A DNA stretch of 47,936 nucleotides, filler included, from Jimgerdemannia flammicorona (taxonomy: Eukaryota): the NCBI GenBank assembly GCA_003990765.1. It is 2 parts of 2 records of this genome, joined end to end, with 100 filler letters (N's around TTAATTAATTAA, not from the genome) between each part and the next. Parts side by side here need not be neighbours in the genome. Positions count along the whole stretch, not along the records: positions 1 to 23,937 come from RBNJ01001044.1; 1 more part is not named here. One strand, 5' to 3'. Position numbers and translations under genes: made by a program. Shown one piece after another: positions 295 to 40,948 of the stretch (within the stretch, counting starts at the first letter, position 1; every line of letters starts with the position of its first letter). The notes below the pieces were generated by a model. That model had not been told where the DNA came from. It saw nothing but the letters and a program-made list of their open reading frames with translations, and did not search any database.

Positions 295-1801
295 TGTAAT
301 GGTGATCTCAGAATGATGACATCATCATAGGAGATAGTCTTTTCTTACAAGCCATCAGATTGAAGTATAAGAAGATTATATGGCATAACTCATCTAGATT
401 ATAAGATAAATAATAATGACCAACTATGAGTTATTGTGATCACAAGACAGATATCTCAAGGAATATAAAAGAAAAATCAAGATACTGCAGTAGCAGTAAT
501 CCAAACAAGGCTCACAGAAATAGTTCAAAAGACTTACTATAAATAAATACCTACTGCTTGCCAAATCTCAAAGTTCAGGAACCACTAAGGCCCCTCAGTT
601 CAGGAAAAAATATTTCAAGACATTAGAAAATCTATAAGAACCTACACAAGAAGGACTCCTAGCCTCAACCTGAATACTAGTGACTCTTATTATTATATCC
701 TCTATCACTACAAAATGGAAACAAGAATCACCATTGCTACTGAATATCTCTGGATATAGCAGAAGTGTGAAATAGGAAACCTCCTCTACCAGGAATTCCC
801 TCAGGCTAGTCCCCAAGAGATTCAAGATACTACCTCCATAGATATACATAAAATAAGGACAGCCAAGAAGATTCATCAGATCTTCAGACATATACATACC
901 ATAGTTGATCTCCAACTTAGAATATACCAGAGTCTCAGACTTTAAGGAACTATCAGTCTGCTATACTAATGCACTAGAGGTCATGGTGGTCACAGAAGCC
1001 CAGTCCACTATCACCCTCAATAGTGATGAAGTAGAAGAGTTCTAGTATCCCATCTTCCAGGACAATCTAGATCAATTCATACAAGAATTGATCTCAGCAT
1101 TCCAAGGCCTCAGCATCCAGGTTAGACCTCTCTAAGACCCCACATTTGTTCTTTATTTTGTAAAAGAGAATGTCATAGATTGGAGAGCCCTCACTACTGC
1201 CAAATGAGATGACATCATTCTGTATAACATATGTAAAATAGATAAAACATTCCCAGACCTCATTTCCTTTAAGGACATCCTGACCTCTGGTAGCAATAAA
1301 GATGAAGCCCTCATAGTTCTGAATATTCTGCTCTAAGTTCTTGGTAATACTGAAATCTTCTGACATCCTTTTTCTATAACATCTGAATCTTTGAGCACTC
1401 TTTTCCTATACTACTGAAATCTACTAATATTCTGAACTTGTGCAACCATTTATACAGATACTTGAATTTGTACTTACAACTATAGTTTTCTATATTTCAG
1501 TATTTTATTTGGTTATTGGAATTTATATTTAGCTTTATAACTTAGCAACTATTAAATTATATTTTGTATAAATATCTCTCTTATTTTCTTTGAAATAAAG
1601 TCAGTCAAGTTCACTTATACTCAATTCTATACAAGCAATCTAAGAGATAATAAGACAGTTTAAAGATAAGAAGTTTGAGGACTATAAGACCTAGAGAAGG
1701 CACTCCAATAAGAACTTGTTTATAACAAACTTGTGGTTAGTCTAAGAGATATATCTTTAAGAGATAATATATTTAAAGAACTCAGCAACTACTACATAAC
1801 A
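295..1801 (+). repeat. Family A 5' LTR (~1.5 kb)
   Basis: Colinear with 7516-9018; TG...CA ends; TATAAA at 1567 and AATAAA at 1594; followed by a degenerate TGGTATC-like putative PBS (~1805-1825, tRNA not assignable). Confidence 0.93.
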
Positions 1802-1830: not shown

Positions 1831-4800
1831 ATGAATCACTCACTTTCAAGTTGAAAGATAAATAATTACCACAATAACTACTCTGACTACAAGAGTTACC
1901 CCTGTAAGAATTCAAGATAAGATAGAAATATATTTCCTCACATTCTATAGATATACTACTGAAGAGTCAATCCTGACCTTCATTGAAGACTTTGAACAAT
2001 TTGCCACCATATGAGCCCTCACCATAGATGCATATGTAATTAGTTCTTCTACCAGTCAGTCTCAGAGGATCTACTAGAGATAGGTTTAATGCAACCACTA
2101 TTACTAATACTATTACAGTCAAACTGGCCAATATGAAGAACTTTCTCAGAACTATATACTATACTGAAGAGATCAAGAAAGCTATCAAGGATCAACTCAA
2201 CACTATCTGTCAAGGGCTTAGTAAAGACCTCAACTTATTCTATACTCAAATCTGCTACCAAATTATCTTGGCTGACTATGATGATGCTCTCAAGGAACAA
2301 ATAGCTGATTCAATCTTCCTCAAAGGAGTTCATCCTGAAATTGCTCTAGCAATCTGGTCTACCCCAGTTACTCTGACCCTTAACCAGAAAATGGTCTTTG
2401 CACAGTAATATTAGACTGTCAGACACCCTGCCAAACACTTAATAGAAAATATAACTGATATCAAGATGGAGCCACAAAAGCCAACCAGTATTATACCTAC
2501 CACAGTTGTAAATAGACAACTATCCCCACCTACCTCTAAGGCAGCCAAAGCTGATTCAGTGAAGGAACTTGCCAAGCAGTTTGCTGAGATGACTACACAC
2601 CTTGGTAATATTGTTAGAGAAATTTGAAGCACCAACAAGAGACCAGTACAGAGATTTGTAGTTACTACAGAAGAATACAATATCACATACTTTAGATATG
2701 AAGAAGAAGGCCACTATATAAAGAGTTGTATAACTGAAATAAGATATAAAGCCCAATCAAGCAATACTATCAGAACTAGAGAATAAACTAATATAGTAGT
2801 CATTGAGGAGATTAGTAATACTGATGATAAAGAATACTATGAGGAGTCTGAATTCTATCCTGTTATTAAAGATATCAGAACTCAGTCTAAGCTCTATGAT
2901 AAGAAGAGTAACAGCAAGCCAGTTGGAAGACCAAAAAAGACCTCAGCTATCACTATTCAAAGCAAGACCCAACCTGAGGAGATTGATTAAGATAAGAAGT
3001 TAGATGAAGCTGCCTGCTAAATTATTGAAGACACTACTCCCATCTCAGGAGAAAGTGAAAGCAAGAAAGAACAGAAGCTATATAAGACCAAGATCCACTA
3101 GTATAATATCTACAATGATCTCAAGAAACAGAAGATCAATAGTACTTTTGAACAACTAGCTAAAGTCCCTATCTTTAGACAGTAGTTGAGAGTAGGACTT
3201 ACAACTACTATCAAGAACCAAGAGTATAAGATCATAAAAGCTCAAAATATATAAGAAGATGAACAAGAAGACTCAGGTGAAGAATCTAAAGATCAGTGCA
3301 AGACATCAGCCTATACTCTATATCAGATTGAAGATTATATCTTTGATGTCATTATTAATACTAGTGCTGGAGGATGCCTCATAAGTAAGAAGACAATTGA
3401 TCACCTAGGCTGAGATATTGAAGAGTCTATCAAAATAATCTATATCACAGCAGATGGTATATGAGCTACCCTCTTAGGCAAGATATGAGAAGTCCCCATC
3501 AAGATAGGAGGAGCTATCATCCTAGTAGACATAATTGTTATAAGTACCACCAACTATGACATCCTTATTGGTAACCAATAACTTCACAAGACCAAGACTG
3601 TCATTGATCTCAATGCCCAGAAGATATAGATCAACTATAGAGGAAGAAAGATATAAGTCTCTATCAATATCTACAAAGAAGTACTACCAGACATGGAGAA
3701 AGAAGATGAAGAAGACACAGAAATCTTCATATACTTGGCATATAAGAACAAGAGCAAGACACTCAAGCTCACAGATAAGCAGTGGTACAATAAGATCATT
3801 GATGGCTATGTCCCTCAAGAAAGATGTCTCCATGGTATTAGGATGTACTACTCTGAACACCTGAATGACTACTGGTCCTATATCAGTAAAGTCAGAAAAA
3901 TATGCCAACAAAAGTATGAGCAAGAAGCTACTGAAGCAAAAAGAAAAGTCAAAGAAGATGACCAGCCCCCAGAGCTTCAAGCTGATAGTGATGATAAGGA
4001 GGAACAAGAACCAGACATTATTCTCAAGGTCAAGAAGTTTCACCCTGAAGCCAAGGTCCCAGAATGTAAGACTGAAGGAACCATAGGAATGGACCTTACC
4101 AGCATTTAAGATACTATCCTTAAACTACAGACCACTACTCTACTTGGTACTGGAATTGGAGTCAAGTTGCCAGAGAACTATACTGAAATTATCAAGACCA
4201 GGAGCAGTCTGATCAAAAGTAAAATCTCAGTTAAAGGAGGAGTAATTGACTCTGATTATACTGGTAAGATCTTTCTCATAGTCAGAAATTACAACCCCAC
4301 CACCTCATTCAAAGTCAAGAAGTATGACAGAATTGGCCAGATGCTGATCTATGAAGTCAAGAAGTCTAAGATCACTGAAGCCATTGAACTCATCAAGACT
4401 AAGGGAGGAGAACAAGACTTTGAATCTACTGGAAAAGAAGCCTATACTGCTACCAAGATTACTGAACTCAAGCACAAGAAAGATAAGAACCAGAATAAGC
4501 ACACATATATCATTGGAAAAAACTTTCCCCTAGAAGAATAACTTCTCAAGATCCTATACTGGAATGAAAGAGTACTTGCCACAGACTTCAGGGATATATA
4601 CAATCAAGAATCTAAGTACTACTATGAAAGTTGATACCAGCAATATCAAGCTCATCTATCAAAAAGCCAGACCTATACCACTTGTCTACAGAGAATGGCT
4701 GAGAGCAGAACTCAAGGAAATAGAAGAAGCTGAAATCATCAAGCAAGCAATTAGTTCCTGGGCTTCACTCATTGTCCTCACTCTAAGGAAAAAAGGCAAG

Positions 4801-7515: not shown

Positions 7516-9018
7516 TGTAATGATGATCTCAGAATAATGATATCATCACAGAAGACAGCCTTTCCTTACAAGCTACTAGATCAAAGTATAAGAAGATTAT
7601 ATGGTATAACTTACCCAGGCTATAAGATGAGCAATGATGACTAATCATAAGTTATTATGACCATAAGATAGATATCTCAAGAAATATAAAAGAAGAATTA
7701 AGAAACTGCAGTAGCAGCAATCCAAACAAGGCTCACAGAAATAGTTCAAAAGACTTACTATAAATAAATATCTGCCACTTGCCAAATCTTAAGATCCAGA
7801 AACTACTAAGGCCCTTCAGTCTAGGAAAGGATATTTCAAGATATCAGAAGAGCTATGAGGACCTGTACAAGAAGGACTCCTAGCCTCAACTTGGGTACTG
7901 GTGACTCTTATTATTATATTCTCTACTGCTACAAAATGGAAACAAGGATCACCATTGCTACCAAATGTCTCTGGATGTGGCAGGAATATGAAATAGGAAA
8001 TCTTCTCTGCCAGAAATTCCCTCAGGCCAGTCCCCAAGAGATTCAAGATACTATCTCTATAGATATATGAAATAAGAATAGCTAAGAAGAATTATCAGGT
8101 CTTCAGGTATGTACCATGATCAATCCCCAACTTAGAATACACCAGAGTCTCAGACTTTAAGGAACTGTCAGCCTGCTGTACCAATGTACTGAAGGCCATG
8201 GTGGCCACAGAAGCCCAGTCTATTATCACTCTCAATAGTGATGAAGTAGAAGAGTTCTGGTATCCCATCCTCTAGAACAATTCAGATCAATTCATATAAG
8301 AATTGATCTCAGCATTCTAAGGCTCCAGTATCCAGATTAGACCTCCCCAAGATCCCACATTTGTTTCTTATTTTGTGGAAGAGAATGTCATAGATTGGAG
8401 AGCCCTCATCACTGCTGAATGAGATAATATCATCCTGTGTAACATATGTGAAATGGATGAAATATTTACAGACCTCATTTCCTTCAAGGATATCCTGACC
8501 TCTGGTAGTGATAAAGATGAAGCCCCCATGGTCTTGAACATTCTGCTCTAAGTTCTTGATAATACCAAAATCTTCTGGCATTCTTTTTCTATAACATCTG
8601 AATCTTTGGGCACTCTTTTCCTATTTTACTAAAATCTACTGATATTCTAAACTTATGCAACCATTTGTACAGATACTTGAATTTGTACTTACAACTGTAG
8701 TTTTCTGTATTTCAGTATTTTATTTAGTTATTGGAATTTATATTTAGCTTTATAACTTAGCAAATATTGAATTATATTTTATATAAATACCCCTCTTATT
8801 TCCTTTGAAATAATGTTAGTCAAGTTCACTTATACTCAATTCTATACAAGCAATCTAAGAGATAACAAGAAGTTTAAAGATAAGAAGTTTGAGAACTACA
8901 AGACCTTGAGAAGGTACTCTAATAAGAACTTGCTTATAACAAACTTATAGTTAGTCTAAGAGATATACCTTGAAAAGAATCTGATATATTTGAAGGACTC
9001 AGTGACTACTATATAACA
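7516..9018 (+). repeat. Family A 3' LTR
   Basis: Starts right after the PPT; matches the 5' LTR with mostly transition differences. Confidence 0.93.
7530..8551 (+). pseudogene. LTR-internal (U3) ORF of family A, unknown function; other copies at ~313-1336 (+) and ~39880-40930 (-)
   Basis: Manual translation gives 'IFQDIRRAMRTCTRRTPSLNLGTGDSYYYILYCYKMETRITIATKCLWMWQEYEIGNLL...RIAKKNYQVFRYVP*SIPNLEYTRVSDFKELS'. Many stops are CAA/CAG/TGG in a sister copy. Start is approximate. Confidence 0.75.
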
Positions 9019-9479
9019 ATATATATATATTGTGGCATTGGTTATGTATGATGAACTTCGATTGCATGGCTCAATGTGTGCCACTTGGTGAAGCACGCGA
9101 TGTATAACTGAATGCGTTTCACAACAGTTATGGGTCAATGATCGCATGACAGGTCGTTTGATTCATGTAGTAATTGATAATGGGGAGGTCGTTCAGTTGT
9201 TCAATGGCTCAGGACATCGATGGCTCAATTGTTTAGTGGAAAAAAGGTGTTGTTGCTAACAGAGGGCAGTTATTATGCTGGCTAAGTTTCCTGGCGGCGA
9301 TTAACTTGTCAGCAAACTTAGCGACAATGGGCTTGCTCTTTATGTGGTCAATTAAAGTGGTCCGTGGCGCAGTAGCTCGGAAAAAACAGAGGTTGATGGC
9401 TTGCTCATCCATCTTAACTTGTTAGGTTCCTGGCAGTCGTTCAGGTCTTTGGCAGTGGGTCGGCCTTTGGCGGTCTAGT

Positions 9480-9680
9480 ATCCTTTAGCTGGGTATCCTT
9501 GGGTTTCTGGGTCTTGAATCTCGGCGGTCTCAAATGCATGGTCCGAATGGTGGTCTGGTCTTGAATCCTTGGCTGGGTCTCGGGTCTTGAATGGTGGTCT
9601 GAATAGTGGTCCGAATGGCGGTCTGGTCTTGAATCCTTGGGTTTCCAGGTCTCGAATGGTGGTCGAATGGCAGTGGTCAG
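9480..9680 (-). repeat. Degenerate tandem repeats in family B U5 (also ~19570-19770)
   Basis: Recurring TCTTGAATCCTTGG and GGTC(C/T)GAATGG units. Confidence 0.7.
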
Positions 9681-10049
9681 GTAACATTTTCTTTCTGTGG
9701 CAAGAGAAAATTCTTTAACTCAAACCTCGAGCGATTGTTGCTCTAGTTATCTTGTTCTCAGAATTTATCCAGTCTCTTGGAGGCAGTGTGTTTTCTCTGT
9801 AAAACTATCTGGCTGAGGCTTTATTCACTCTAAGAATATGGGTTATTTATACAAGTTTGCTAGCTATGAGAGAGGGGGTACAACTAAGGCTAAAGTATAC
9901 TATATTGTGGCAAACTTATGCTATTGGTTTGCATGATGCAAGGTGCAGGCTATTGTTTACTATGGATTGGGTTGTAGGGGATTGCAATGCTAGATTCGGA
10001 CTTGCTGACATGAAGGCTGCACAATTCTCATAGCTGACAGGTGGTGGTT

Positions 10050-11126
10050 CTAGAGGAAATAGTACCCTTTGTCCGCGGCAGGCAAATCTTGCTGGGTTAA
10101 GATTTCTTCTTCATCATACCTCTTCTCAAAAGGGGGAAGCGCTGGCCAAGAAGTGAGGGGGTAGAAAAGTGGCCAGTTATCTTCAACAACATTCTCCAAC
10201 CCTTGAACAGCTTGAATGTGGACAGAGGACTGGTAGACTCTCTGTTGCTCCTCTTCTTCTTCTGAAGGCTCATCAGTTTCAGTGTCAGAGGGGGTTTCTT
10301 CAGAGGCAGGGTCTTGGAGTTCTTGGGCTTCCTCCTTAAAGACAGGGACCTCTTGGGCTTCTTCTTGATTCGGTTCCCAAATGATGAGATGTGAATTGTG
10401 GCTGACAGGGTGGTGGGTGGTAGGGGTAGCTCCAATGGGTGCTTCTATAGTAATGGGTGGTCCTTCAAACATCTCCATAAGGCTCATTAGGTGATCTTGA
10501 TAGTTGTCTCAGAGTGGGGTGGTGTGGAAACCTGGTTGAGTAGGTTCGGTTTGTTGACTTCCTACAGCGACGCAGTTGCTACCAATAGAGTTGGCTACTT
10601 CAGATTCTATCCAGTCAGCATCTTCAGTTGAAAGGTAGGAAAGGCTGCCAGTCATTACTCCTTGCAAGTGTGCTATGGCCCAGGGAATATGGTGGAAGAT
10701 TTGGTAGACATGGAGGGCTCTCTTGATTAGCCGGCTAGTGGTTATCAATTCGGTAATGAGGCCTTCCCAGTCGTCTTCTTGAGTCTCATTGCGAAGGCAG
10801 TGTCCAATTTTGTAGTTATGCCAGAGGGTCATTCGTTCGGTAGTGTCTTTGAGCTGTTGGGTCATTATATACCGGTAGTTGATGAAGTGTCCAAGGTCCT
10901 CGGTGTAGAAGTTCAAGTGTTTGGAAGTATCTGGGCACCAAATGGCCTTCTTGATAGCTTCAAAGATCAGGGTCTTTGGGCCAGGCAGAGGGGTAGAGTG
11001 GCGGGAGGTCTGGTTGGTTCGGCGAGTGGGAGACATTGTGTGGTGGGTACTTGGTTCTTTGGTGCCGATCCCTGAGGTGGGGTATGGTTCCTTAAATAAC
11101 ATGGTCTTCATTTTGGCTCGGATCAT
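10050..11126 (-). pseudogene. LTR-internal (U3) ORF of family B, ~358 aa, unknown function
   Basis: ORFs 10509-11126 and 10050-10487 are in one frame, split by a single TGA that is CGA (Arg) in the other LTR ('TTPLRDNHQGHLM'). Confidence 0.85.
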
Positions 11127-11567
11127 CTTGTCTTCTTTGGGATAATCACCTAATGGGTCAGGCTGTCTATTTGATTGTCATGCCATTATGTCGTCTGACC
11201 TTAGCAGTCACCAGTACTCCATTGTCAATTGTGTACATCACATCTGCCCCTTGCAAAATTAGAGCCATCCTCAGCGGTGAGGGTTACATAGAGTTGGGTG
11301 GTCTTAACTCCAGGGATGAGTGAAATGCTGGCGCATTTGTGAGGACTAGCCATCCTTGTCTAGGGCGAGGGCTCCCATAGTCATAGCTGGGGGTTCGAAC
11401 TCATTGGAAATAGTATTACTTGTAATCCGAGGCAATTTCTTAGTAACAATGTCTGTCACATGGATGGGCTTGAGTCTGGTTCCAACGTTGTTGGCTTTCT
11501 TGAGTTCCGAGTGAAATGTCCATCGTATATCCAGCAGAGACGATACAGACAGAGTGAACAGGATTGT

Positions 11568-14500
11568 TTAAATGCGTTTTGCTTCTCTTGAGTAGTAGAG
11601 TCTTATGCGGTTGCGATGTATCTTGGTCTTGAGTATAACTCTATCCAAGGTCTTGAGTTGATAAGTGTGGTTTGAGAATACTTGGTGTATGAGATAGGGA
11701 CCTTCCCATTTTGGTTCAAGCTTGGCACTCCAATTTCCTTCTATGATAGTATAGTATACCAGAACCTTTTGTCCAATGAGCAGGGGTTTGAGGTCAGCTT
11801 TGCAGTCATAGTATCTCTTTTGTCGTTCTTGTGCCTTGGCGATAAATCCTCGTGCTTGCTGGCGTATGTCATATAACCGGGTGATCTCTTCTGTGACTCG
11901 TTTTGACAGATCTAGCTGGACTGGTTCAGTAGGATCTTGTGCTTCTCAGCCATACACCAAATAGAAGGGGGTCTGTTGGGTAGCAGTTGCCTTAGAGGTA
12001 CAGATACTGAACAGAATTGCCGGTAGATAGATATCCCAGTTTAGTTGATCTCTGGTTCTACTGAGACCTCGCTTGATGGTCTGGTTCATTCATTCAGTAA
12101 GTCCATTTGCCTGTAGGTGATAGGCTGTTGTTGGTCGTAGCTTGATCTTGAAGTTGCTTGCAAAGGTCTTTATGGCTTGGTTGACGAATTCTTGGCCTTG
12201 GTCAGTAATGATTTCCTTGGGCACACCATGGCGGCTGAAAATTTCATCATACAGGATCCCAATAATTGTCTGAGCATCAGCAGTCTCGATGGCAAAGGCT
12301 TCGGGCCATTTTGTCAGGTGGTCTTCAATAGTGAGGATGTAGCATCTTCCTCGGCTGGTTATTGGTAGGGGTCCAATAATGTCTATTCCCAGTCTTTGAA
12401 AGGCTCCAGCTGGTGCTACGATTGGTATTAATGGTGCTCTGTTGGTAGGCTTTTGTTGGTATCTTTGGCAGATATCACATTGTTGAATGTGCATTGAAAT
12501 TTGTTTTCTCATCTTGGGCCACCAGTATCACTTCTTGATTCCTGCAATTGTGGCACCAATTCCTCAGTGTGTATTTTGGTCATGATTTGTTGTCAGGATC
12601 TTCAATATTTCTTCTTCTCTTAGAACTCGGGTGTACTGCTCTCCTTCAACTCTCCAAAGTTTGCCATCGCCTTCTTGAGATTTCTTGAAATTCCTTTAGA
12701 TAAACAACTTGTGGGCTGGTTGGATTCCTTTCTTGAAGCTTCTATGGTGCAGACTCCAGGTGAGGGCGAGGCACAATTCTTGGTTCATTTGGGTGAGTGG
12801 GAAGTAGCCTTCTCTTGTGGGGGCTCCTTCCCTTCTTGTTGGTTTCGCGGGATTCTTGACAGGGTATTGACATTGGAATTCTTAGCACCTTTTTTGTAGA
12901 CAATAGTGAACTGATATTCTTGCAGAGACATGATCCATCTAGCAAAGATTCCTGAGGGCTCCAGCTTGTTAAACAACCATTGTAGAGCTTGATGGTCAGT
13001 GATGAGGGCGAATCTCTTTCCCAAGAGATAGTGTCGGAAGTGGTCCACAGCCCAAACTACTGCTAGGCATTCCAACTTAGTGGCTCCATAGTTCGCTTGT
13101 GTTTCATTCGTGACCTTGCTAGCATATTCGATAACATGCTCCCTCTTCTGGTCATCTTGCTGAGACAGAATTGATCCAAGTCCTAAGGCTGAGGCATCAG
13201 TTGCCAGGATGAATGGTTTGCCAAAGTCTGATTGCACCAGGACAGAGGCTTCAGTAAGGGCCTTCTTGAGTAGGTCAAATGACTTTTGTTGTTCCTTTTT
13301 TCAGTAGAATGGTTGGTCCTTCTTGGAGATATCTCAGAGAGTTGCTGCCTTATCTGAAAACCTTGGGATGAATCGTCGATAGTAGGATGCCAGCATAAGG
13401 AAGGATAGGGTCTCCTTTGCTGAGGTCAGGGTTGGGTAGTTCTTGACTTTCTCCACCTTGCGGGGGTCGGCATATGTTCCTTGAGCTGAGACAACATATC
13501 CCAGATATTCGACTTGATGTTTTCCAAAGAAGCACTTCTTGGCATTGAGTCTGAGTCCTGAATTTCGAATGGTATTGAATACTTCACGAAGGTCTTACAA
13601 ATGCTGCTTGAATGTCTCAGAGTAGATGATGACATCATCTATGTACACTAGTACATTACTTCCAATGAGGTCCCGGTAGACATAGTTCATCATTCGTTGG
13701 AATGAGGCAGGTGCATTGCAGAGTCCAAAGGGCATTTGTAGGTATTCATACTGTCCTCGTCTGGTGATGAAGGCCGTCTTGCAGATATCTTCTTTGGTAA
13801 TGGGTATTACTTGAAATCCTTGGAACTGGTCAGTAGTGGTCATGTATTTGGCTTTTCCGAGGGCATTGATGAGGTCATCAATTCTTGGCAGTGGGTAGGC
13901 ATCTTCTGTGGTGACTTTGTTGAGTTTTCTGAAATCCATAACTAATCTCCATCCTCCTTTCTTTGGTACTATGATTGCTGGTGAGGCCCAGGGGCTTGAT
14001 GATGGTCTGATGACTCCATTTCGTAGCATTTCGTCTATGTGTTGTTGTTCGAATTCAATCAGATGATGTGGTGTTCGGTAGGGTCATTGTCGGATTGGTC
14101 TTGCATCTCTAGTATATATAGGGTGTTCTCCATATTGATATAGTGGGAAGTTATCGTATGTGGTGGTAAATATATCTTTGTACTCCTCTATCAACTCCTG
14201 CATTTGTTGTTGCTGGTCTTTGGTTAGAGTTGTCTCGATGTCGACAGCTTTGATTGCTGAATTTGCTGAGTCTTCCTCTCTGGTACCATCAGTCTCACCG
14301 GAGAGGGCTTGCCATTTCCCAAAAATTCGAAGACTTCTTCCTTGTAGGTATCTATCAGTGGTTCAAAATATCCCAGTGTTATTCCCTTGGGGATAGTTAT
14401 CACTTCGAAGCCTGAGTTTCTGATAGGGATGTGGATTGGTGACATCTGGTCATGAATTCGTTCTTTGGCCAGGAGGATGTGGTATTCCTTTTGAAGCTCC

Positions 14501-17500
14501 AGTGATAGTGCAAATATCAAGTTGTTTGCTTCTACTGGTAGGTGCACATCTAGGCCTTTTTGCTGGTAGGGCTGCAGGAGGATGTCTTCTCTTGCTTGGA
14601 TTGGGCAGCAGATATGGGGTCTCATTTGTCGGAATTGAGCAACTGTTGCCAAATGAACCTCGATAGGTGGTGTCCATAGATTTCTATTGGTGCTTCCAAA
14701 GCCTCCTTGTCCTCTGTTGGTATCTTCTAGTTGGTCTACCTCTTGGATGGTCGGCTGTGATGTCTTGATAAACAGAATTTGGCAGATGGCTTCCATAGGA
14801 CTGAAGAATCGGCTGGTTCTACTAGAATTGTGGATGATGATCTTCAAGGGACCTCGGTAGTCCTGATCGATGACTCCTCCTTCTACTGTGACTCCTTTGG
14901 TTGCCAATGAGGATCTTGAGGCCAACTGTCCATAATGCCCAGGTGGTATAGCGAGTGCGATCTGTAGGTCAAAAGTCCTGGTACTTCTGGGCCAGATTCT
15001 TGCTTGGTAGGGGAGGCAGAGGTCATAACCAACTGATCCTTCTGTTTGTGCAATAGGTGGCTGTGCCCAGGGTGAAAGCAGCTTGATCTGGATAATTGGT
15101 TGAGCTTTGAGAAATGGCACTTCAGCTGTTGCCATGGTAGGTGAGAAGTCCATGTGCTCTGGTCTGAAGAAAGGCCAGTGAGCTCCTGTCTTTGAGTTTC
15201 TTGTGTAATTGAATCCAGTCTTTCCTAGAGGGTCCAGAGCTTCCATAAGGATGAAGGCAAGGTTGACACCTTCCTTTCCTTGATGAGGGCGGCAGTACCA
15301 GCGAATGATGGCAAGAACTTCCAATGGTAGGTCCCAGATAGAGGTCTTGCTCTTGAACTTGCAATCTCCTTCATGGTTGATTTCCTTGTACTTCCGACAG
15401 GCCCAGCAAATTTGAGGTTCTTGCAGGGTGGGGTCCTTTCTCTTGACTCGGCTCTTGTAGACATCTTCGCTGAGGTGAACATCTCGATGTTCACACCAGT
15501 AGCAGGTAAAGGTTTTTCCACAATCACAATGTCCCTTCTTGACAAAGTCTTCATTTCGCTGTTTGACCTCCCTACTGGTAGGGAATCTCTTCCGATACTT
15601 GTCATAGGTGGGCTGTGTGATCTGGAGGGCCCGGGTGATAGTGCAAGAGCTATTGCTTTCTCCTTCGATGGTAAGGGACTCAAATGTTTGGCAGGCAAGA
15701 ATCTTCTGTCCTTCCTTATAGGTCTTCTTGAAGGTCTTCAGGGTTGGAGGTTGTATTCGGCTATGGGATGGTGCTTGCTTCAATTCATCCTTGTTATCAA
15801 TTTCTGGCATTGGAACCTTCTTGAGATCCAGGATTTGGCAATTGCTGCAATCATCTCTTGGTGAGTGGAAGCTGATGAAATGTTCACATATGCCTCGACA
15901 AAAGGCTCACATGATCTGATTTTCTACTAGTAGTGGTGGTGGTTGAGCAGAAGGTCCTGTAAACTTGAGTGCTGCCCTTGCATTAATGGCTCTATCAATG
16001 CTTTCTTCCAGGCCTTCAACACCAATAACTCCAATGAAAGAGTCTTCTTGTTTGCCTTCTTGGTCCCTTGGGGCATCAAAATTACTTCCTAGTTATTGTA
16101 GGAAATTGGCCTCACTTTCATCCTCAGTAGTAGTGGGGGTGTCACCATGTCCTTGCCATTCTGTTTCTGAGGCTTGATTTGTCCTTTTAGATGATCCTTT
16201 CGAGTCAATGGGCACCTTGTGCTTCTGTCCATGAATGGAGAAGACCAGGAGTTGTTTCTTGATATCTACGTTGGCTCCAACTCAGCTTAACCAGTCAGTT
16301 CCCAGGATCAGGTCATAGGAGGTTATGGGGGTCACGACGGCTTTGGGTACATTGAGGTGGGCCTTTCCAACTTGAATGGGGATGTCTCTGACAAGTCCAA
16401 GGGGTGTGGAAGCTGATCCATCGGCCATAATAACTCTTGCTTTGGTTCCTTCATCTATTCCCCATCCAATTCGCTCCAATATCCTTTGGGTGATGATGCA
16501 TACTGCTGCTCCAGTATTGATGAGAATTCTGGCATTTTCACCATGCACTTTTCCATCGGCGAGTCTTGTAGATTGATGTTTATGTCACTGGCTCTCATGG
16601 ACTGTGTGGATAGTGCTAGGTTCTTGAGTGTGTGGTCCTTGGACTGGAAGTCTCTTGGTATCTTCCTTGGCTTCTTTCAGGAATTTTTGCCTGACCTCTG
16701 GTGCATTCTTGAGGACTTGCACAACTGTAAGACCAGCATTCTGTAGGCGGATATGTTCCCAAAGTGAGGCTGCTGCATGGGGCTTGCTGCTTCTTTGGTG
16801 TCTTGGTCCCTTGGGGTGTAGTCTCTCATTTCTGATGGACATTTCGTCAGCTGAAGATTCTATACTCATATGCTCATCTTCTTTAAGGTCTGGCAGGGTA
16901 GAGCTGGGGGTTGTCCTAGATGGTCCAGCTTCTGGTTCAGGAGTATCTCTTCTAACTCACTTCTCCTGTTCTTGTGGAGTGTCTGAAGAAGAATGGCCAT
17001 GTTGCAGATGCTTGCCGGTGGATACTGTTACTGACAGTTGAGGTGGGGGGTTCCTTCGTGATCTTCCTCGTCCTCTAGTCTCCACAGGGGCAGCTTCCCA
17101 TGTTACCTTGGATGGGAAGGCCTCGAAGTATGGGTAGATGTCATCTTCTTGACCATGGAGCCAGGCTGCTTCTTCTTCCATCTCCTGAGTTTCTTCATCC
17201 ACCTGAAAGAGGTTGATATTTCTGTCATTGGACTGGGTGGATTGGTTCCTTGGACAATTCCTCTGGATGTGGCCTTGATTTCCACAGCTGAAGTAGGTGG
17301 GACCATAGGAACCAGTCGCTGATGAGGCTGTAGTTGCAGCTGGTAGTGCTGGAGCAGGACCTCTGTTGGCTTGTTGCCAGTAGTCTGGTCTGTTATCATG
17401 ATGGTAGTCTTGTTGTCTTCTACCTTGGTTGTTCAGCTGAGCAACCACGATGGCCAGGTCCTTCATTTGCTTGGTGAGCATTGTCATGGGGTCTTCTTGA

Positions 17501-18888
17501 ACTCTTGATGGTGGCTGCTGCTGTGGTTGCCTGAATGGGGTTGGATTTGTGAGTGCTGGTCTGTTCTCATAGTTGGCTATCTGGGCTCTGAGGAAGGCAT
17601 TCTCTTGCTCCATGGTTGTTCCTTGGGTCCTTGAGGTTTTGGCTCAGATTGGCTCAGGATAGCCTTGTACTTGTTGTACTGGTCTATAATCTGCTTCCCA
17701 ACATCCTTGTGCTCCAGCAACTTGCTGTTCAATATTTCGATATCCCATCCTGATAACTTGCCTTCGGAGTTCTGGGTATAAGCCATTGAGGAAGGTAGTT
17801 GAGGCTAGGGCCAGTTGGACTGCTGGTTGAAGGTTCGCCTTGATCATTTGAGCTTGAATCCGATGGTAGAAACTCTTGGGAGTTTCATTGCCAGCTTGGC
17901 TCATATAGGTCAAAGCCTCCTGTACTTCTTGTTGGTGCTCGAATCCATTGAACTGGGCATGGAGCCAGGCTTTGTGAATCATGTACCTTGCTACATGGTT
18001 CCTATCAGGTTGAAGGCCATCATTCAGTTCCTCAATATGGATTCCTCCTCCGGCTTGCTTGGCTTAATTGTACCTCTGTAGGGCTGGTCCTCTCAGGAGT
18101 GACTCTACAATTCTGAGTTTTCTTGCAGCATCCCATTGTTTGGCGGCTGCTTGAACTTCAATTTCTCCAAAGAATTCCTCAATATCTTCATTGTTTGCAC
18201 CATGGAACTTCTGAAGGTAGTTCATGTCTGGCTCATCTTCACTATCTGAGTATTGTTCAGGGGTAGGGGATCTGGTGGATCTTCGGGGTGATGGGAAAGG
18301 TGGTGGTGGTTGTACTTGATGAACTAGTGGTACTGGCAGAGGGTGGTGTCTTGGTGAGGGTGAGGATAATCTGGCTCTTCTAATTAATGCTGGGGTTGAA
18401 GTCCTGGGTAGTGGTGGAGATCTTCTGATTGACTGGTGATAGTGGCGAGGTGTAAGTGACCAGAGTACTGAAGTTCGGGCAACTGATGGTGGGAGTGGAC
18501 TGATATAACTGATAGTGAGTTCATCTGCCCCTTGCTGTTGTAAAGTAGTGAGGTCTGATTCGCCTTGTTGTGGGTCAGTGTCACTGTCTGGATAATAGTA
18601 TAGATTGAATTTGTCCCTTTGATGGTCTGATCCCCAATTGTCGTCTTGCTCTGGTTGATATGGATGATAGTCCTCTTCTCCTTCTGATGTTTCAAAGTAT
18701 ACCCGGTCTAGTGGAGTGACTCGAGTGACAACAGTAGTTATGTAGTCACTTCTGTCTGAGTTCTTCCTATGGATAAGGGTCTGATACTCCTCGGGGATAT
18801 CCTCTTCTTCTTCTTCTTGGTCTAAGTCTTGGATCTGAAGGGGCAGTTCTGGTTGCCCTCTGAGTTGTCTCCTTTCTCTTGAAGTCAA
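11568..18888 (-). pseudogene. Family B gag-pol polyprotein (probably one ancestral ORF)
   Basis: Capsid 'QKFHGANNEDIEEFF...LRGPA'; knuckle 'YFSCGNQGHIQRNC'; PR 'LINTGAAVCII...LILGTDWL'; RT 'DFRKLN..DAYPLPRID', 'YIDDVII'; RH 'LATDAS', 'TDHQAL'; IN 'CDICQ', 'GIDIIGP', 'ITDQG', 'EGPY'. Gag to dUTPase share one frame; two later frameshifts. Confidence 0.95.
14680..15095 (-). pseudogene. dUTPase domain in family B pol
   Basis: 'SVGYDL', 'GQLASRSSL', 'GGVIDQDYRG', 'ICQILF', 'RGQGGFGST': all five dUTPase motifs. Confidence 0.95.
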
Positions 18889-19100
18889 ACTGTAATCTGG
18901 GTCACTTCTTTCTTCTGATTCGGTTTTCTGACTACTAGTGTTGAGTAGGGTCCTGGCTACTGTTCTGACAAGGGTGTGGGCTTTCTTTTCTGCTGAGGAG
19001 GGCTGTTGCTGCCCCTGGTTTGGTTGCTGACTTGGTCCTGCTAAGTTCTCTACTGTAGATCACTGGGTTCTTGAGCCAAATGGTCAAGTCTTTTGAAAAC

Positions 19101-19119
19101 TTTCCCAGTTGAGCCCCCA
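19101..19119 (-). promoter_or_regulatory. Primer-binding site, tRNA-Pro-like
   Basis: Minus strand TGGGGGCTCAACTGGGAA just after the 5' LTR resembles the canonical tRNA-Pro PBS TGGGGGCTCGTCCGGGAT. Confidence 0.8.
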
Positions 19120-19122
19120 AAA

Positions 19123-21338
19123 TATGGCATTGGTTATGTATGATGAACTTCGACTGCACGGCTCAATGTGTGCCACTTGGTGAAGTGTGCGATATATAAC
19201 TGAATGCATTTCGCGACGGTTACGGGTCGATGATTGCGTGATGGGTCATTCGATTTGTGTGGTAATTGATAATGGGGAGGTCGTTCGGTTGTTCAATGGC
19301 TCAGGATGTCGATGGCTCAATTGTTTAGTGGAAAAAAGGTGTTGTTGCTAACAGAGGGCAGTTATTATGCTGGCTAAGTTTCCTGGCAGCGATTAACTTG
19401 TCGGCAAACTCAGCAACGACAGGCTTGCTCTTTATGCGGTCAATTAAAGCAGTCCGTGGCGCAGTAGCTCGGAAAAAATGGAGGTTGACAGCTTGCTCGT
19501 CTGTCTTAACTTGTTAGATTCCTGGTGGTCATTCGGGTCTTTGGCAGTGGGTCAGCCTTTGGCAGTCTAGTATTCTTTGGCTGGGTATCCTTGAGTTTCT
19601 GGGTCTTGAATCTCAGCGGTCTCGAATGCATGGTCTGAATGATGGTCTGGTCTTGAATCCTTGGCTGGGTCTCGGGTCTTGAATGGCAGTCTGAATGGCA
19701 GTCCGAATGGTGGTCTGGTCTTGAATCCTTGGGTTTCCGGGTCTCGAATGGTGGTCGAATGGTGGCAGTCGGGTAACATTTTCTTTCTGTGGCAAGAGAA
19801 AATTCTTTAACTCAAACCTCGAGTGATCATTGCTCTAGTTATCTTGTTCTCAGAATTTATCCAGTCTCTTGGAGGCAGTGTGTTTTCTCTGTAAAACTAT
19901 CTGGCTGAGGCTTTATTCACTCTAAGAATATGGGTTATTTATACAAGTTTGCTAGCTATGGGAGAGGGGGCGCAACTAAGGCTAAAGTATACTATGTTGT
20001 GGTGAACTTATGCTATTGGTTTGCACAATGCGAGGTGCAGGCTATTGTTTACTACAGATTGGGTTGTAGGGGATAGCAATGCTGGATTCGGACTTGCTGA
20101 CATAAAGGCTGCACAATTCTCATGGCTGACAGGTGGTGGTTCTAGAGGAAATAGTACCCTTTGTCCGCAGCAGGCAAATCTTGCTGGGTTAAGATTTCTT
20201 CTTCATCATACCTCTCCTCAAAAGAGGGAAGTGCCGGCCAAGAAGTGAGGGGGTAGAAAAGTGACCAGTTATCTTCAACAATATTCTCCAACCCTTGAAC
20301 AGCTTGAATGCAGACAGAGGACTGGTAGACTCTCTGTTGCTCCTCTTCTTCTTCTGAAGGCTCGTCAGTTTCAGTGTCAGAGAGGGTTTCTTCAGGGGCA
20401 GGGTCTTGGAGTTCTTGGGCTTCCTCCTTAAAGACAGGGACCTCTTGGGCTTCTTCTTGATTCGGTTCCCAAATGATGAGATGTGAATTGTGGCTGACAG
20501 GGTGGTGGGTGGTAGGGGTAGCTCCAATGGGTGCTTCTATAGTAATGGGTGGTCCTTCAAACATCTCCATAAGGCTCATTAGGTGACCTTGATGGTTGTC
20601 TCGGAGTGGGGTGGTGTGGAAACCTGGTTGAGTAGGTTCGGTTTGTTGACTTCCTACAGTGACGCAGTTGCTGCCAATAGAGTTGGCTACTTCAGATTCT
20701 ATCCAGTCAGCATCTTCAGTTGAAAGGCAGGAAAGGCTGCCAGTCGTTACTCCTTGCAAGTGTGCTATAGCTCAGGGAATATGGTGGAAAATTTGGTGGA
20801 CATGGAGGGCTCTCTTAATTAGCTGGCTAGTGGTTATCAATTCAGTAATGAGGCCTTCCCAGTCGTCTTCTTGAGTCTCATTGCAAAGACGGTGTCCGAT
20901 TTCATAGTTATGCCAGAGGGTCATTTATTTGGTAGTACATATCTTTGAGCTGTTGGGTCATTATATACCAGTAGTTGATGAAGTATCCAAGGTCCTCGGT
21001 GTAGAAGTTCAAGTGTTCGGAAGTATCTGGGTGCCAAATGGCCTTCTTGATAGCTTCAAAGATCAGGGTCTTTGGGCCAGGCAGAGGGGTAGAGCGGCGG
21101 GAGGTCTGGTTGGTTCAGCGAGTGGGAGGCATTGTGTGGTGGGTACTTGGTTCTTTGGTGCCGATCCCTGAGGCAGGGTATGGTTCCTTAAATAATGTGG
21201 TCTTCATTTTGGCTTGGATCATCTTGTCTTCTTTGAGATGATCACCTAATGGGTCAGGCTGTCTATTTGATTGTCACGCCATTATGTCATCTGACCTTAG
21301 CAGTCACCGGTACTCCATTGTCAATTGTGTACATCACA
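19123..21338 (-). repeat. Family B 5' LTR (2216 bp)
   Basis: Same sequence as the 3' LTR plus a 4-bp insertion near 20937; terminal CA mutated to TA; adjacent to the PBS. Confidence 0.96.
20142..21222 (-). pseudogene. Second copy of the family B LTR ORF (5' LTR)
   Basis: Same reading frame, disrupted at other places (4-bp insertion ~20937; TGG>TGA ~20772). Confidence 0.85.
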
Positions 21339-29534: not shown

Positions 29535-31934
29535 ATGACCGACATGAAACGTAGCTGGTCCAAAAACTCTGCCGCCAACTCCATCGACTCCGATGCCTCC
29601 GATCCAGGACCAGCCTACGTAGAGCACACACACGTGGAAGAGGGAGAGACTGATCTGGCGAGGGCTGTGAGGGTGCAATTGGAGAAGAAGGCCGAGGAGA
29701 CAAAGAAGGAGGAGGAAGAGGAGAAGGAGGGACATGAAGGTACGTGGTAGGCAGGGAAACGAGTTGAGGGGATCAATCTCCCGTTTGTGTGAATCTGCCG
29801 GTAACTCTAGCGTTTTGCTTTGCGTTGTAGGCTTCCTCGACGAATGGCCGGACGATACAGATGTGAGTTTTATTTCTTCGCGATATCGCAGAGTTCGATG
29901 TTTACGCTCTTTGTAGGCCTCTTGGTGAAACGGCCATATTCCTCAACCGCGTCTCACAACATCTTTCGTCGTTCCACATCTCATCGTCCACGATCACAGG
30001 AGCTCGAACTCGTCCATTGCCGTCTCAAAGATCTTGCCAGCCTCGGATTGTCACGGTTCAAAAACTTGCAGGTAAATCCCGCCGTTGGTTTTCAGTGATT
30101 GCCTCGGTGACGTATGCTTGCACTTAGTGTGTTCAATCAATCGGGTGTGGGGCTCTTACCTCGACGATGGTCAGAAGGAAGATGGATATAGCGAGCTGAG
30201 TTTCATCCATAACCTGCTGCCCTTGCTCTTCTCTCACCTATACATACCTCATCCAACGTCATATCGTCCTTAACCCCCGCACCGCCAGAAACTCTGCGTT
30301 CGCCAGAATCTGATCACACACATCGACGGACTAGACACGCTATCACAGCTCAAGGAACTTGACATGTATGATAACAAAATATCGCACGTGCGAAACCTCG
30401 GCGGGATGACAGCGCTCGAGTGAGTAAATTGGAGGTGGGGAACTGGGAAGGGGAACCATGCTGGTTATTGCGGCTTTTGAGGAGGCCGAGAGTCGGTGGA
30501 TTAGATGGAAATGCGTTGTTCGCGGTCAGGCGGCAATGATGGATAACTCCCTTTTCGCTGACATATTCCTATTGTGTGTCGTCCGACCGCCCCCTATACA
30601 AAGGTACCTCGACCTCTCATTCAACAAGATTAAGACCATCGCCCACCTCGATCACCTCACTACCCTCACCAACCTCTTCTTCGTCAGCAACAAGATCTCG
30701 CGCATTGACGGGCTTGAAACGCTCACACTCATCACCAACCTCGAGCTTGGCGCTAATCGGATCAGGGTGAGCATGGAAACCTGAGGTTGCGAGTTTGAGA
30801 GGAAAGGAGTGGGTCCTATTGAGGACGAGTCGGGTGGATGGAACGGGTCTAACAGCATGTTCTTGTGATTCGATTGTTTGGGTTTGTTTGCTCTTTTTTG
30901 TTGGGTGACGGCCGTTATAGGTGATCGAAGGGCTCGACACGTTGGTAAACCTGGAGCAGCTGTGGCTCGGCAAGAACAAAATCACCAAGCTGGAGGTGAG
31001 TGGTCCAGGCCCTTATGTCTCAACGTGGTGAGATCTTTAGAAGTTATGCGTCACCCTCTCTTATCATATCGCTCATCTGACACTTCATTTTATCACCAAT
31101 TCACTCTTCACCCCAACGCGCAGGGTTTGAACTCGCTGAAGAAACTACGACTCCTCAGCATCCAGAGCAATCGACTGACACGGATCGAGGGTCTAGACGA
31201 ACTCGAAAACCTCGAGGAGATATACTTGAGCCATAATGCCATCGAACGGTTGAGCGGATTGGAGAAGAATGTGAGTGTGTCGATTAAACAGGACAGGGAG
31301 AAATTGTGGCAATTTACGGCACTGCGGAGATTCGTTTAAAGTTGTGTGATCGCTTCAGTTTGAATTATTTTTTTATTGATTATTATCACGATATCTAGGT
31401 AAAAATACGGACGATCGACATCGCAAACAATCGGCTGGAACACATCGAGGGTATTGCACACCTCACGAGGCTGGAGGAGTTTTGGGTAAATATTATTGGA
31501 TTGTTCCGCTCATTCATTGTATTGGGGTAACCTCATTGACATCTCCCACCTCCCACTCTTTCATTATTCATGACCGCATCTCTCGTTCTTGTTACGATCC
31601 TATTTTCTTTCAGGCCAATAACAACCTCCTCTCTTCCTTTGAGGAGCTCGAGCAGCAGCTAGCCGACAAGCGGCACCTCTCCACCGTCTACCTCGAGGGC
31701 AATCCCATGCAGCGCGACAACCAGCCAACGTACCGGACCAAAGTGAAGCTGGCCGTACCGCAGGTGAAGCAGATCGACGCAACGTATGTGCATTTCTTTT
31801 CTTTCTTTACGGTTTCTGGGATTCTGCGTTTTCTGCGTAGGTAGTGAGGGCTTCGAATGGAGCATTGGATGCGATTTGGATTGGTGTGGTAACATTGTCT
31901 CTGCACGGGGTTGATGTCTAGGTACGTGCGATGA
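29535..31934 (+). CDS. sds22: Protein phosphatase 1 regulatory subunit Sds22/PPP1R7 (LRR protein), ~10 exons
   Basis: Spliced LRRs 'ELELVHCRL', 'LCVRQNLI', 'LKELDMYDNKI', 'LDLSFNKI', 'LELGANRIR', 'LWLGKNKITKLE', 'LSIQSNRL', 'LEEFWANNN' and LRR cap 'VYLEGNP...YRTKV...QIDATYVR'. Confidence 0.95.
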
Positions 31935-34666: not shown

Positions 34667-34814
34667 ATAGTTAAAGATAAGAAGTTTGAGGACTATAAGA
34701 CCTTAGGAAGGCACTCTAATAAGAACTTGCTTATAACAAACTTGAGTTAGTCTAAGAGATATACCTTGAAGAGAATCTGGCATATTTGAAGGACTCAGCA
34801 ATCACTACATAATA
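34667..34814 (+). repeat. 3' terminal fragment of a family A LTR
   Basis: Matches ~1656-1801 and ~8870-9018. Confidence 0.85.
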
Positions 34815-40800: not shown

Positions 40801-40948
40801 TAATCATTATGACTTATAATTGGTTATCATTGCTCATCTTGTAGCCTAAGTGAGTTATACTATATGATCTTCTTATATACTGATCTGATGGCTTATAAGG
40901 AAAGACTGTCTTCTGTGATGATGTCACTATTCTAAGATCACTATTATA
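34815..40948 (-). mobile_element. Second family A Gypsy copy, truncated inside integrase; 5' LTR 39348-40948
   Basis: Reverse complement of ~295-6413 including gag, PR, dUTPase (~36760-37190), RT and RH; outer flank ATAT at 40949-40952. Confidence 0.92.

Follow-up and report, generated by a model that had tools for sequence, protein, structure and literature searches.

An open reading frame (ORF) located inside the long terminal repeats (LTRs) of two families of Ty3/Gypsy retrotransposons, named A and B here, was studied in a stretch of 47,936 nucleotides from the genome of Jimgerdemannia flammicorona (assembly GCA_003990765.1). This stretch, called the window throughout, consists of two genomic parts joined by 100 filler letters, with positions 1 to 23,937 coming from RBNJ01001044.1, and all coordinates are counted along it. 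As judged from sequence comparison, the ORF is a real gene under purifying selection (the LTR gene), inherited with a clade of Gypsy elements that bear a dUTPase domain. That the gene is under selection follows from a similarity specific to the coding frame, from a proportion of nonsynonymous differences (pN) well below that of synonymous ones (pS), and from the existence of intact relatives in about seven lineages. A preliminary description of this DNA had proposed a selected protein-coding gene inside the LTR, homologous in the two families, and the frame-specific match together with pN < pS bears this out. The favoured explanation as a whole, which we hold to be probable, is that of a conserved gene in the U3 part of the LTR, provided with its own promoter and coding for a trans-acting regulator of the LTR.

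The LTR Gene in Family B

In the 3′ LTR of element B, a frame of 358 codons runs on the minus strand from 11126 to 10053 and is interrupted by a single in-frame TGA at 10506–10508. The equivalent frame of the 5′ LTR (21222 to 20145) contains stops and an insertion at sites other than that of the TGA. The conserved start is residue M31 of this frame (ATG 11036–11034), as the relatives and family A begin at the corresponding methionine. Thus, the 3′ copy of the gene occupies 10050–11036 (minus strand), with 328 codons and a TAG stop, and the 5′ copy occupies 20142–21132 (minus strand), with three in-frame stops and a 4-bp insertion. The in-frame extension of 30 codons upstream of M31 (11037–11126, minus strand) is missing from the relatives and holds a TATA-like box, called TATA1 below, so the start of the gene is placed at 11036 and the extension is probably not translated. 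The preliminary description was therefore right as to a sense ORF in each B LTR, broken at different sites in the two copies, but not as to its length, which it gave as about 358 codons.

The LTR Gene in Family A and Its Homology to That of Family B

Three LTRs of family A carry the gene in a decayed state. According to counts read by eye from the alignment, the 5′ copy of element A1 (547–1336, plus strand) has 6 in-frame stops, one indel-disrupted codon and a start codon decayed from ATG to ATA; the 3′ copy of the same element (7768–8551, plus strand) has 7 in-frame stops, one indel and a start likewise decayed to ATA; and the copy of element A2 (39854–40688, minus strand) retains its ATG and has 12 in-frame stops and 4 indel-disrupted codons. 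The terminal stop is common to the three copies, while the internal stops are mostly at different sites. A consensus was built by aligning the three LTRs and taking C or G wherever the copies differ by C/T or G/A. Once corrected in this way for C>T and G>A changes, the consensus has a single open frame, of 261 codons, the other two frames being full of stops.

The comparison of both families was made at the protein and DNA levels. The uncorrected B protein already matches the decayed A2 LTR (E 0.006). In blastp, the A consensus matches the B protein (E 2e-17; 27% identity across 194 aa) and also P0001, an intact relative (E 5e-20). The Smith–Waterman score of A versus B is 178, far above that of 1000 shuffled controls (mean 36.5 ± 5.5, maximum 62; z 25.5). 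The similarity belongs to a single combination of frames, since the sense frame pair scores 175 and the other eight sense pairs score 31–43. On the other hand, blastn found no significant DNA similarity between the A and B genes (best E 0.10), and nucleotide identity at the first, second and third codon positions is 0.37, 0.54 and 0.33. A protein match in one frame that is not accompanied by DNA similarity is the pattern of a selected protein after the DNA has diverged to saturation. The preliminary description had reported colinear peptide blocks in A and B with no obvious DNA similarity: all 12 peptide strings taken from these blocks are present where it placed them, and the absence of DNA similarity agrees with the blastn result.

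Relatives Outside the Window

A word-based search yielded intact B-type proteins (P0001, P0003 and P0007) of 325–331 aa and 76–77% identity, all starting at the methionine equivalent to B residue 31. A profile combining B-type proteins with open fragments of A was searched among 1.84 billion representatives and gave 9 proteins with new lineages among them, and a wider profile gave 9 more-or-less A-like clusters. Intact relatives of type A are P0020 and P0008. The former (271 aa) is 78% identical to the A consensus from the first to the last residue, and this full-length match validates both the A reconstruction and its start codon. Intermediate proteins were also found. P0009 and P0010 match the LTRs of both A and B with E values from 1e-14 to 1e-33, and P0009 bridges the families with 7.6e-26 to B and 6.8e-33 to A.

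When metagenomes were scanned with B-type patterns, none of 150 pattern matches was confirmed as a locus, while the scan with the wider alignment gave two loci whose DNA holds an intact ORF: L001, with 323 codons, and L002, with 291. Altogether, about seven lineages can be told apart: B; A; L001/P0022; P0009/P0017/L002; P0010; P0014/P0018; and P0015/P0019. The relatives come from short environmental contigs, none has an NCBI or UniRef source, and where they are named at all the name is "hypothetical protein". In the ESM Atlas only unnamed clusters were found, at 0.86 or lower. Fused forms of 600–2000 aa were not found, which is weak evidence that the gene stands apart from pol. When 9 proteins of the family were compared to the whole window, they matched only in the five LTRs.

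Selection and Mutational Decay

Selection was estimated from Nei–Gojobori counts; with synonymous sites close to saturation, the ratios are approximate, but their direction is clear. The natural, intact ORFs of L001 and L002, compared over 278 codons, gave pN 0.40 and pS 0.72 (dN/dS about 0.23). Family B versus L002 gave pN 0.48 and pS 0.72 (dN/dS about 0.33), and the A consensus versus L002 gave pN 0.39 and pS 0.74 (dN/dS about 0.18). For the A consensus versus L001, pN was 0.28 and pS was 0.77, the latter being saturated, so that dN/dS was not computable; identity by codon position was 0.67, 0.74 and 0.44.

These data bear on whether the ORF could be a host gene captured recently, or a chance or relic frame devoid of function, which we consider very improbable. 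Such an origin would suit the small size of the family, with 9 representatives among 1.84 billion. It is opposed by the occurrence of the ORF in at least two Gypsy families, the reverse transcriptases (RT) of which are about 39% identical, and in about five further lineages, by the conservation specific to the coding frame, and by pN being well below pS. Moreover, every relative is unnamed and devoid of Pfam domains, no NCBI or UniRef sequence is among them, and the strand composition of the ORF is the same as that of pol.

The decay of the copies is of a defined kind. The two LTRs of element B differ by 139 transitions and one transversion, with 66 changes at CpA, 56 at CpG, 15 at CpC and 2 at CpT. 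Since the differences are of the transition type, the breaks in the ORF can be attributed to damage after insertion, resembling repeat-induced point mutation (RIP). As a separate observation, changes at CpG are wholly absent among the copies of family A, as though these sites had been exhausted earlier.

Putative Transcription Signals Around the Gene

Promoters, start sites and the U3/R borders were read from motifs. Upstream of the gene, a TATA-like box (TATA1) is present 62–91 nt before the ATG in the four lineages for which DNA is available, although the surrounding sequence is unalignable. Its form is TATTTAAGG in B and TATAAAAGA or TATAAAAGG in A, L001 and L002. In element B it lies at 11090–11098 (minus strand), 62 nt upstream of the ATG, and in the 5′ LTR of A1 (TATAAAAGA) at 464–472 (plus strand), 83 nt upstream of the start codon. 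No ATG occurs between TATA1 and the start codon in any of seven copies, including that of element B, and the start context is CAAA-ATG or CACA-ATG.

Downstream of the gene, a spacer with 6 TAGC words (9852–10049, minus strand) separates the stop codon of the B ORF from a second box, TATA2 (TATAAATA, 9844–9851, minus strand), presumed to be the promoter of genomic RNA. This box starts at 9851, 198 nt past the stop, so the ORF lies upstream of it as had been described. An AATAAA (9820–9825, minus strand) is found 26 nt past the start of TATA2, followed by GCCTCAGCCA. In the 5′ LTR of A1, TATA2 (TATAAATA, 1567–1574, plus strand) is 230 nt past the stop and AATAAA comes 27 nt later. A core common to B, A and L001 is thus recognized 177–230 nt past the stop, formed by TGTATAAATA, AATAAA 26–27 nt later and (C/G)CTCAG(T/C)CA. 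The distance from TATAAATA to CTCAGTCA, about 33–36 nt, fits a TATA box followed by a start site or initiator.

It is likely, from these motifs, that TATAAATA, the AATAAA 26 nt on and CTCAG(T/C)CA correspond to the promoter and start of genomic RNA. The placement of the gene in U3 depends on reading TATAAATA as that promoter. With the poly(A) signal situated between the TATA box and the start site, it would be transcribed only in the 3′ LTR, an arrangement known from some retroviruses. As to the gene itself, the chances seem about even that it has its own TATA box in TATA1 and uses the poly(A) signal of the LTR, in which case each LTR would be a self-contained transcription unit.

Two other arrangements were considered. 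In the first, the gene would also be in U3 but TATA1 would be no promoter, and expression would proceed from the genomic promoter in the manner of the retroviral genes nef and sag, by splicing or from the 3′ part of full-length RNA. The position of the ORF 3′ of pol in genomic RNA, as in retroviral U3 genes, agrees with this; the maintenance of TATA1 at −62 to −91 in all four lineages despite unalignable flanks does not, nor does the lack of ATGs between TATA1 and the start in all seven copies, and we judge nef/sag-like expression to be rather unlikely. In the second arrangement, TATA1 would be the genomic promoter and TGTATAAATA...AATAAA no more than a fungal poly(A) signal, composed of an efficiency and a positioning element, so that the ORF would be the first cistron in a long R region, with a short mRNA arising by early polyadenylation. 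TATA1 is indeed conserved, and yeast poly(A) signals include elements of the UGUAUA or UAUAUA type located upstream of AAUAAA. However, R would then have to exceed 1.2 kb, Gag translation would be hampered by the 328-codon ORF preceding it, and the TATAAATA-to-CTCAGTCA spacing of about 33–36 nt is that of a TATA/initiator promoter. The second arrangement appears less probable still than the first. In what follows, TATA1 is taken as the candidate promoter of the gene and TATA2 as that of genomic RNA.

The spacer between the ORF and TATA2 deserves a comment. In the spacers of four lineages (B 9852–10049, the A LTRs, L001:1041–1217 and L002:1252–1535), TAGC occurs 17 times versus 7.25 expected (z 4.3), which makes it the top one of 256 words. 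It is on the sense strand and often in the form (A/T)TAGC(C/A), with a density of 1.7–6.1 per 200 nt in the spacers versus 0.5–1.15 within the ORFs. These spacers have no common 6-mers, and their common 5-mers are no more than in shuffled sequences. The TAGC words may constitute a response element.

The Predicted Protein and Its Possible Function

The product of the LTR gene ranges from 261 to 342 codons across lineages, and the proteins begin with MPP, MPA or MSP. By the searches made, the protein is an orphan that belongs to no described family. Pfam gave only a sub-threshold match to Cgr1 with the B ORF and no family at E up to 5 with any of 14 members, a profile search of PDB sequences gave no matches at E up to 10, and neither Foldseek against PDB nor the viral structures of BFVD gave any match at E 0.001 or better.

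Structure was predicted with AlphaFold2 (AF2) for P0008 with 14 sequences and for P0020 with 22; the mean predicted local distance difference test score (pLDDT) was 66, and the core reached 82–96 in the P0020 model. In the models, about 190 N-terminal residues form a helical domain, which is followed by a short hairpin and then a disordered tail (tail pLDDT < 50). A lead pointing to a helix-turn-helix, with VIA Z values of 3.4–4.1 to VirB/SopB/ParB rows, was obtained with the P0008 model and discarded after it was not reproduced with the better-supported P0020 model, for which the best Z in VIA was 3.8, to generic helical bundles. Both best values, 4.1 and 3.8, are much too low to carry meaning for helical models.

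The tail bears a net charge of −11 to −26, with 19–28% of D plus E, in line with the acidic C-terminal parts described preliminarily. In most lineages other than B (P0020, P0008, P0010, P0017, L001 and L002) it contains the motifs [DE]LIxF[ES] and, near the terminus, PxxLNF. In sequence and model, the tail has the features of an acidic activation domain, i.e., predicted disorder, a net negative charge and interspersed bulky hydrophobic residues; acidic tails rich in F, W and L act as activation domains. The highest Kyte–Doolittle mean over 19 residues is at most 1.09 in nine of nine proteins, so no segment attains transmembrane hydropathy, and the earlier statement that the protein is not env-like holds.

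By analogy, the product can tentatively be taken as a trans-acting transcriptional regulator of the LTR of its own family, built like VP16 or the Tas protein of foamy viruses, although we would give this less than even chances. Under such a mechanism, TATA1 would drive an mRNA of about 1.1–1.4 kb ending via the poly(A) signal of the LTR, and a 5′, a 3′ or a solo LTR would serve alike as transcription unit for the protein. The folded N-domain would bring the protein to the LTR, perhaps at the TAGC-rich spacer, either directly or via a host factor, the latter route being as likely as direct DNA binding. The acidic tail studded with hydrophobic residues would then operate as an activation domain on the neighbouring genomic promoter. 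Taken to its full extent, every LTR, solo ones included, would be an autonomous gene whose protein acts in trans on the promoters of the family, in a VP16/Tas-like or an anti-silencing manner; this is possible, but we are doubtful about it.

The same features of the protein admit a function other than activation. One candidate role is that of an anti-silencing or chromatin factor, for instance an acidic binder of histones or heterochromatin in the manner of VANC of VANDAL, and another is that of an adaptor for trafficking or targeting. The RIP-like attack of the host on these elements, with 139 transitions to one transversion, and the acidic nature of the whole protein, N-domain included, are in accord with such roles. 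Concerning the adaptor, the sequences LISFE and LIIFE, from two lineages, conform to the pattern of a clathrin box, L-phi-x-phi-[DE], and [WFY]xx[LIV] follows acidic residues in several tails. Nevertheless, motifs of such short length would be expected by chance in tails of acidic and hydrophobic composition, the B lineage lacks them, and no homology was found to any anti-silencing factor or adaptor. An anti-silencing, chromatin or adaptor role is kept as the main rival to the activator, a possibility of some weight, yet not a probable one.

Several observations weigh against the explanation of the LTR gene as a U3 gene with its own promoter that encodes a regulator of the LTR. The N-terminal part is mildly acidic (pI 5.6–6.6) and has no match to a DNA-binding fold, so direct DNA binding is not indicated. 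The motifs LIxF and PxxLNF are missing in the B lineage. All five copies of the gene in the window are inactivated by RIP-like C>T mutation. The LTR context beyond the window is partial, as L001 has the downstream core, L002 stops short of it and for the remaining relatives just the protein is known. To this must be added that the promoters, start sites and U3/R borders have been assigned by motif alone, and that the TAGC word was noticed before being tested, with a crude shuffle control.

Host Elements and Other Features of the Window

Element B as a whole spans 9031–21338 on the minus strand, as delimited by self-comparison and alignment. Its direct repeats, 9033–11242 and 19125–21338, are 93.5% identical, which corresponds to LTRs of about 2.2 kb. 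The 3′ LTR (9031–11242, 2212 bp, minus strand) has TG...CA ends and follows the purine tract AAGGGGCAGA, which ends at 11243; the 5′ LTR (19125–21338, minus strand), aligned to it, has TG...CA ends too. The internal region (11243–19124, minus strand), as annotated with Pfam, is broken by stops and codes for a putative gag, dUTPase, RT, RNase H and integrase. The gag assignment comes from a weak zf-CCHC match (E 0.0068; 16.9 bits, under the cut-off of 20.8). The order of the Pfam domains on the minus strand, RVT_1 at 13595–14029, RT_RNaseH at 12785–13237 and rve at 12090–12512, is that of Ty3/Gypsy elements.

Of family A, element A1 was recognized by self-comparison and LTR alignment, with its 5′ LTR at 295–1835 and its 3′ LTR at 7516–9031 (plus strand). 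A second copy, A2, runs from 40954 to 34815 on the minus strand, with its 5′ LTR at 39334–40946 (minus strand, by self-comparison). A2 matches A1 only up to A1 position 6413 and is therefore truncated or rearranged. In both families pol contains, upstream of RT, a dUTPase (PF00692), at 14224–15810 (minus strand) with E 4.9e-30 in B and at 4167–4541 (plus strand) with E 2e-14 in A. The dUTPase domain is described as rare in retrotransposons (PMC2864245, PMC5408684); it is also reported for the element Tmt1. As pol of A and B is only 26–46% identical (39% in RT) and both contain dUTPase, A and B are distinct families of one dUTPase-bearing Gypsy group.

Some further observations concern these elements. 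The end of the A1 3′ LTR faces the end of the B 3′ LTR over about 12 nt of (TA)n (9019–9045), the two elements being inserted side by side, and a piece of 151 nt (34671–34821, plus orientation), with an 88% match to the end of the A LTR, adjoins the minus-strand A2. The presumed U5 of the B LTR (9431–9668) contains tandem repeats, with two units of period 68 at 9539–9668 and periods of 12 and 18 close by, and its contig depth in four contig sets, three of them labelled soil metagenome, is much below that of the U3 part. Family B occurs in several sequencing runs labelled soil metagenome, from five studies. In the four contig sets, the summed depth on the gene-bearing part of the LTR is 2–5 times that of the internal region, as expected where LTRs outnumber full elements.

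Along the window, GC content switches between about 0.2–0.37 and 0.44–0.51, with the appearance of repeat-rich fungal DNA. Fragments of a leucine-rich-repeat ORF (LRR_4, E 5e-8 and 9e-8) at 30458–31339 (plus strand), within the GC-rich 29–32 kb, are probably a host gene with introns located between repeats. Two more pairs of diverged direct repeats were observed, 33358–34273/46802–47696 (70%) and 24304–24960/26717–27372 (67%), and the skew of C over G on the plus strand is very strong at 24–28 kb.

Comparison with Known Systems

Genes located in U3 or overlapping it are known from retroviruses, namely sag of mouse mammary tumour virus (MMTV), nef, and the bel genes of foamy viruses. MMTV sag is a complete sense ORF inside U3, of about 320 codons and present in both LTRs, and the LTR gene would resemble it in this, its own place in U3 being read from motifs. 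However, the product of sag is a type II membrane glycoprotein, made by a retrovirus of vertebrates, whereas the fungal protein has neither a hydrophobic segment nor a Pfam match. The tas/bel1 gene of foamy viruses is taken as the working analogy: it is a 3′ accessory gene overlapping U3, with a second promoter and an acidic C-terminal activation domain. Tas acts on the promoters of its own element, and the same is proposed, by analogy, for the product of the LTR gene. There are differences, since Tas binds DNA and its gene overlaps U3 only in part, while the LTR ORF lies wholly inside the LTR and DNA binding is not indicated for its product; as for homology to Tas, there was no Pfam match and no match to viral structures at E 0.001 or better. 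The nef gene of human and simian immunodeficiency viruses (HIV/SIV) resembles the LTR gene, itself presumably in U3, as an accessory ORF overlapping U3, with an acidic cluster and short adaptor-binding motifs, but Nef is myristoylated at an N-terminal MG and its gene overlaps U3 in part, whereas the proteins considered here have no MG start and no Pfam or fold match. Outside the retroviruses, herpesvirus VP16 shows a comparable layout, with a folded core that is acidic overall, a disordered acidic C-terminal tail and F and L residues that matter. This is an analogy of architecture alone, as no fold match was found.

Among fungal Gypsy elements, brtn of Boty/BcGypsy1 is reportedly an antisense gene, going by the title of Zhao et al. 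2011, and the LTR gene differs from it in being on the strand of pol in both A and B; it lies inside the LTR. As cited in PMC8365987, brtn, from Botrytis cinerea, is likewise an additional gene in a fungal Gypsy element with no assigned function. An "add. ORF" that PMC2864245 marks in some fungal elements may bear on the novelty of the LTR gene. In the literature searched, mostly outside subscription journals, no gene of this kind, located within the LTR, was encountered for any fungal Gypsy element. Plant Ogre/Tat elements carry extra ORFs as well and, to our knowledge, those of bdelloid, Athila and Ogre/Tat elements are located after pol and before the 3′ LTR, or else before gag, not inside the LTR. 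These extra ORFs belong to protein families other than that of the LTR gene. They include the lineage-specific accessory ORF3 types of bdelloids, where clades carry a dUTPase between protease (PR) and RT (PMC5408684), and the env-like extra ORF of plant Athila (PMC2864245).

Significance

Usually, LTRs are regarded as control regions that code for nothing, and they are masked ahead of gene annotation, while here a whole gene is found inside them. This gene has been kept by selection across families whose LTRs have no DNA similarity, and its protein has no known family or fold. With this finding, the location of accessory genes within or across U3, familiar from retroviruses, extends to fungal retrotransposons and, by implication, solo LTRs can be coding units. 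As the family has come to light in environmental assemblies alone, and there under no name other than "hypothetical protein", it is suggested that genes of this sort are systematically missed. The LTR gene also offers a tractable candidate for self-regulation of transposons, or for resistance to genome defence in fungi that mutate their repeats. If the reading of each LTR as an autonomous gene were true, a regulatory circuit of retroviral style would have arisen independently in a fungal retrotransposon, and solo LTRs would stay biologically active as protein producers.

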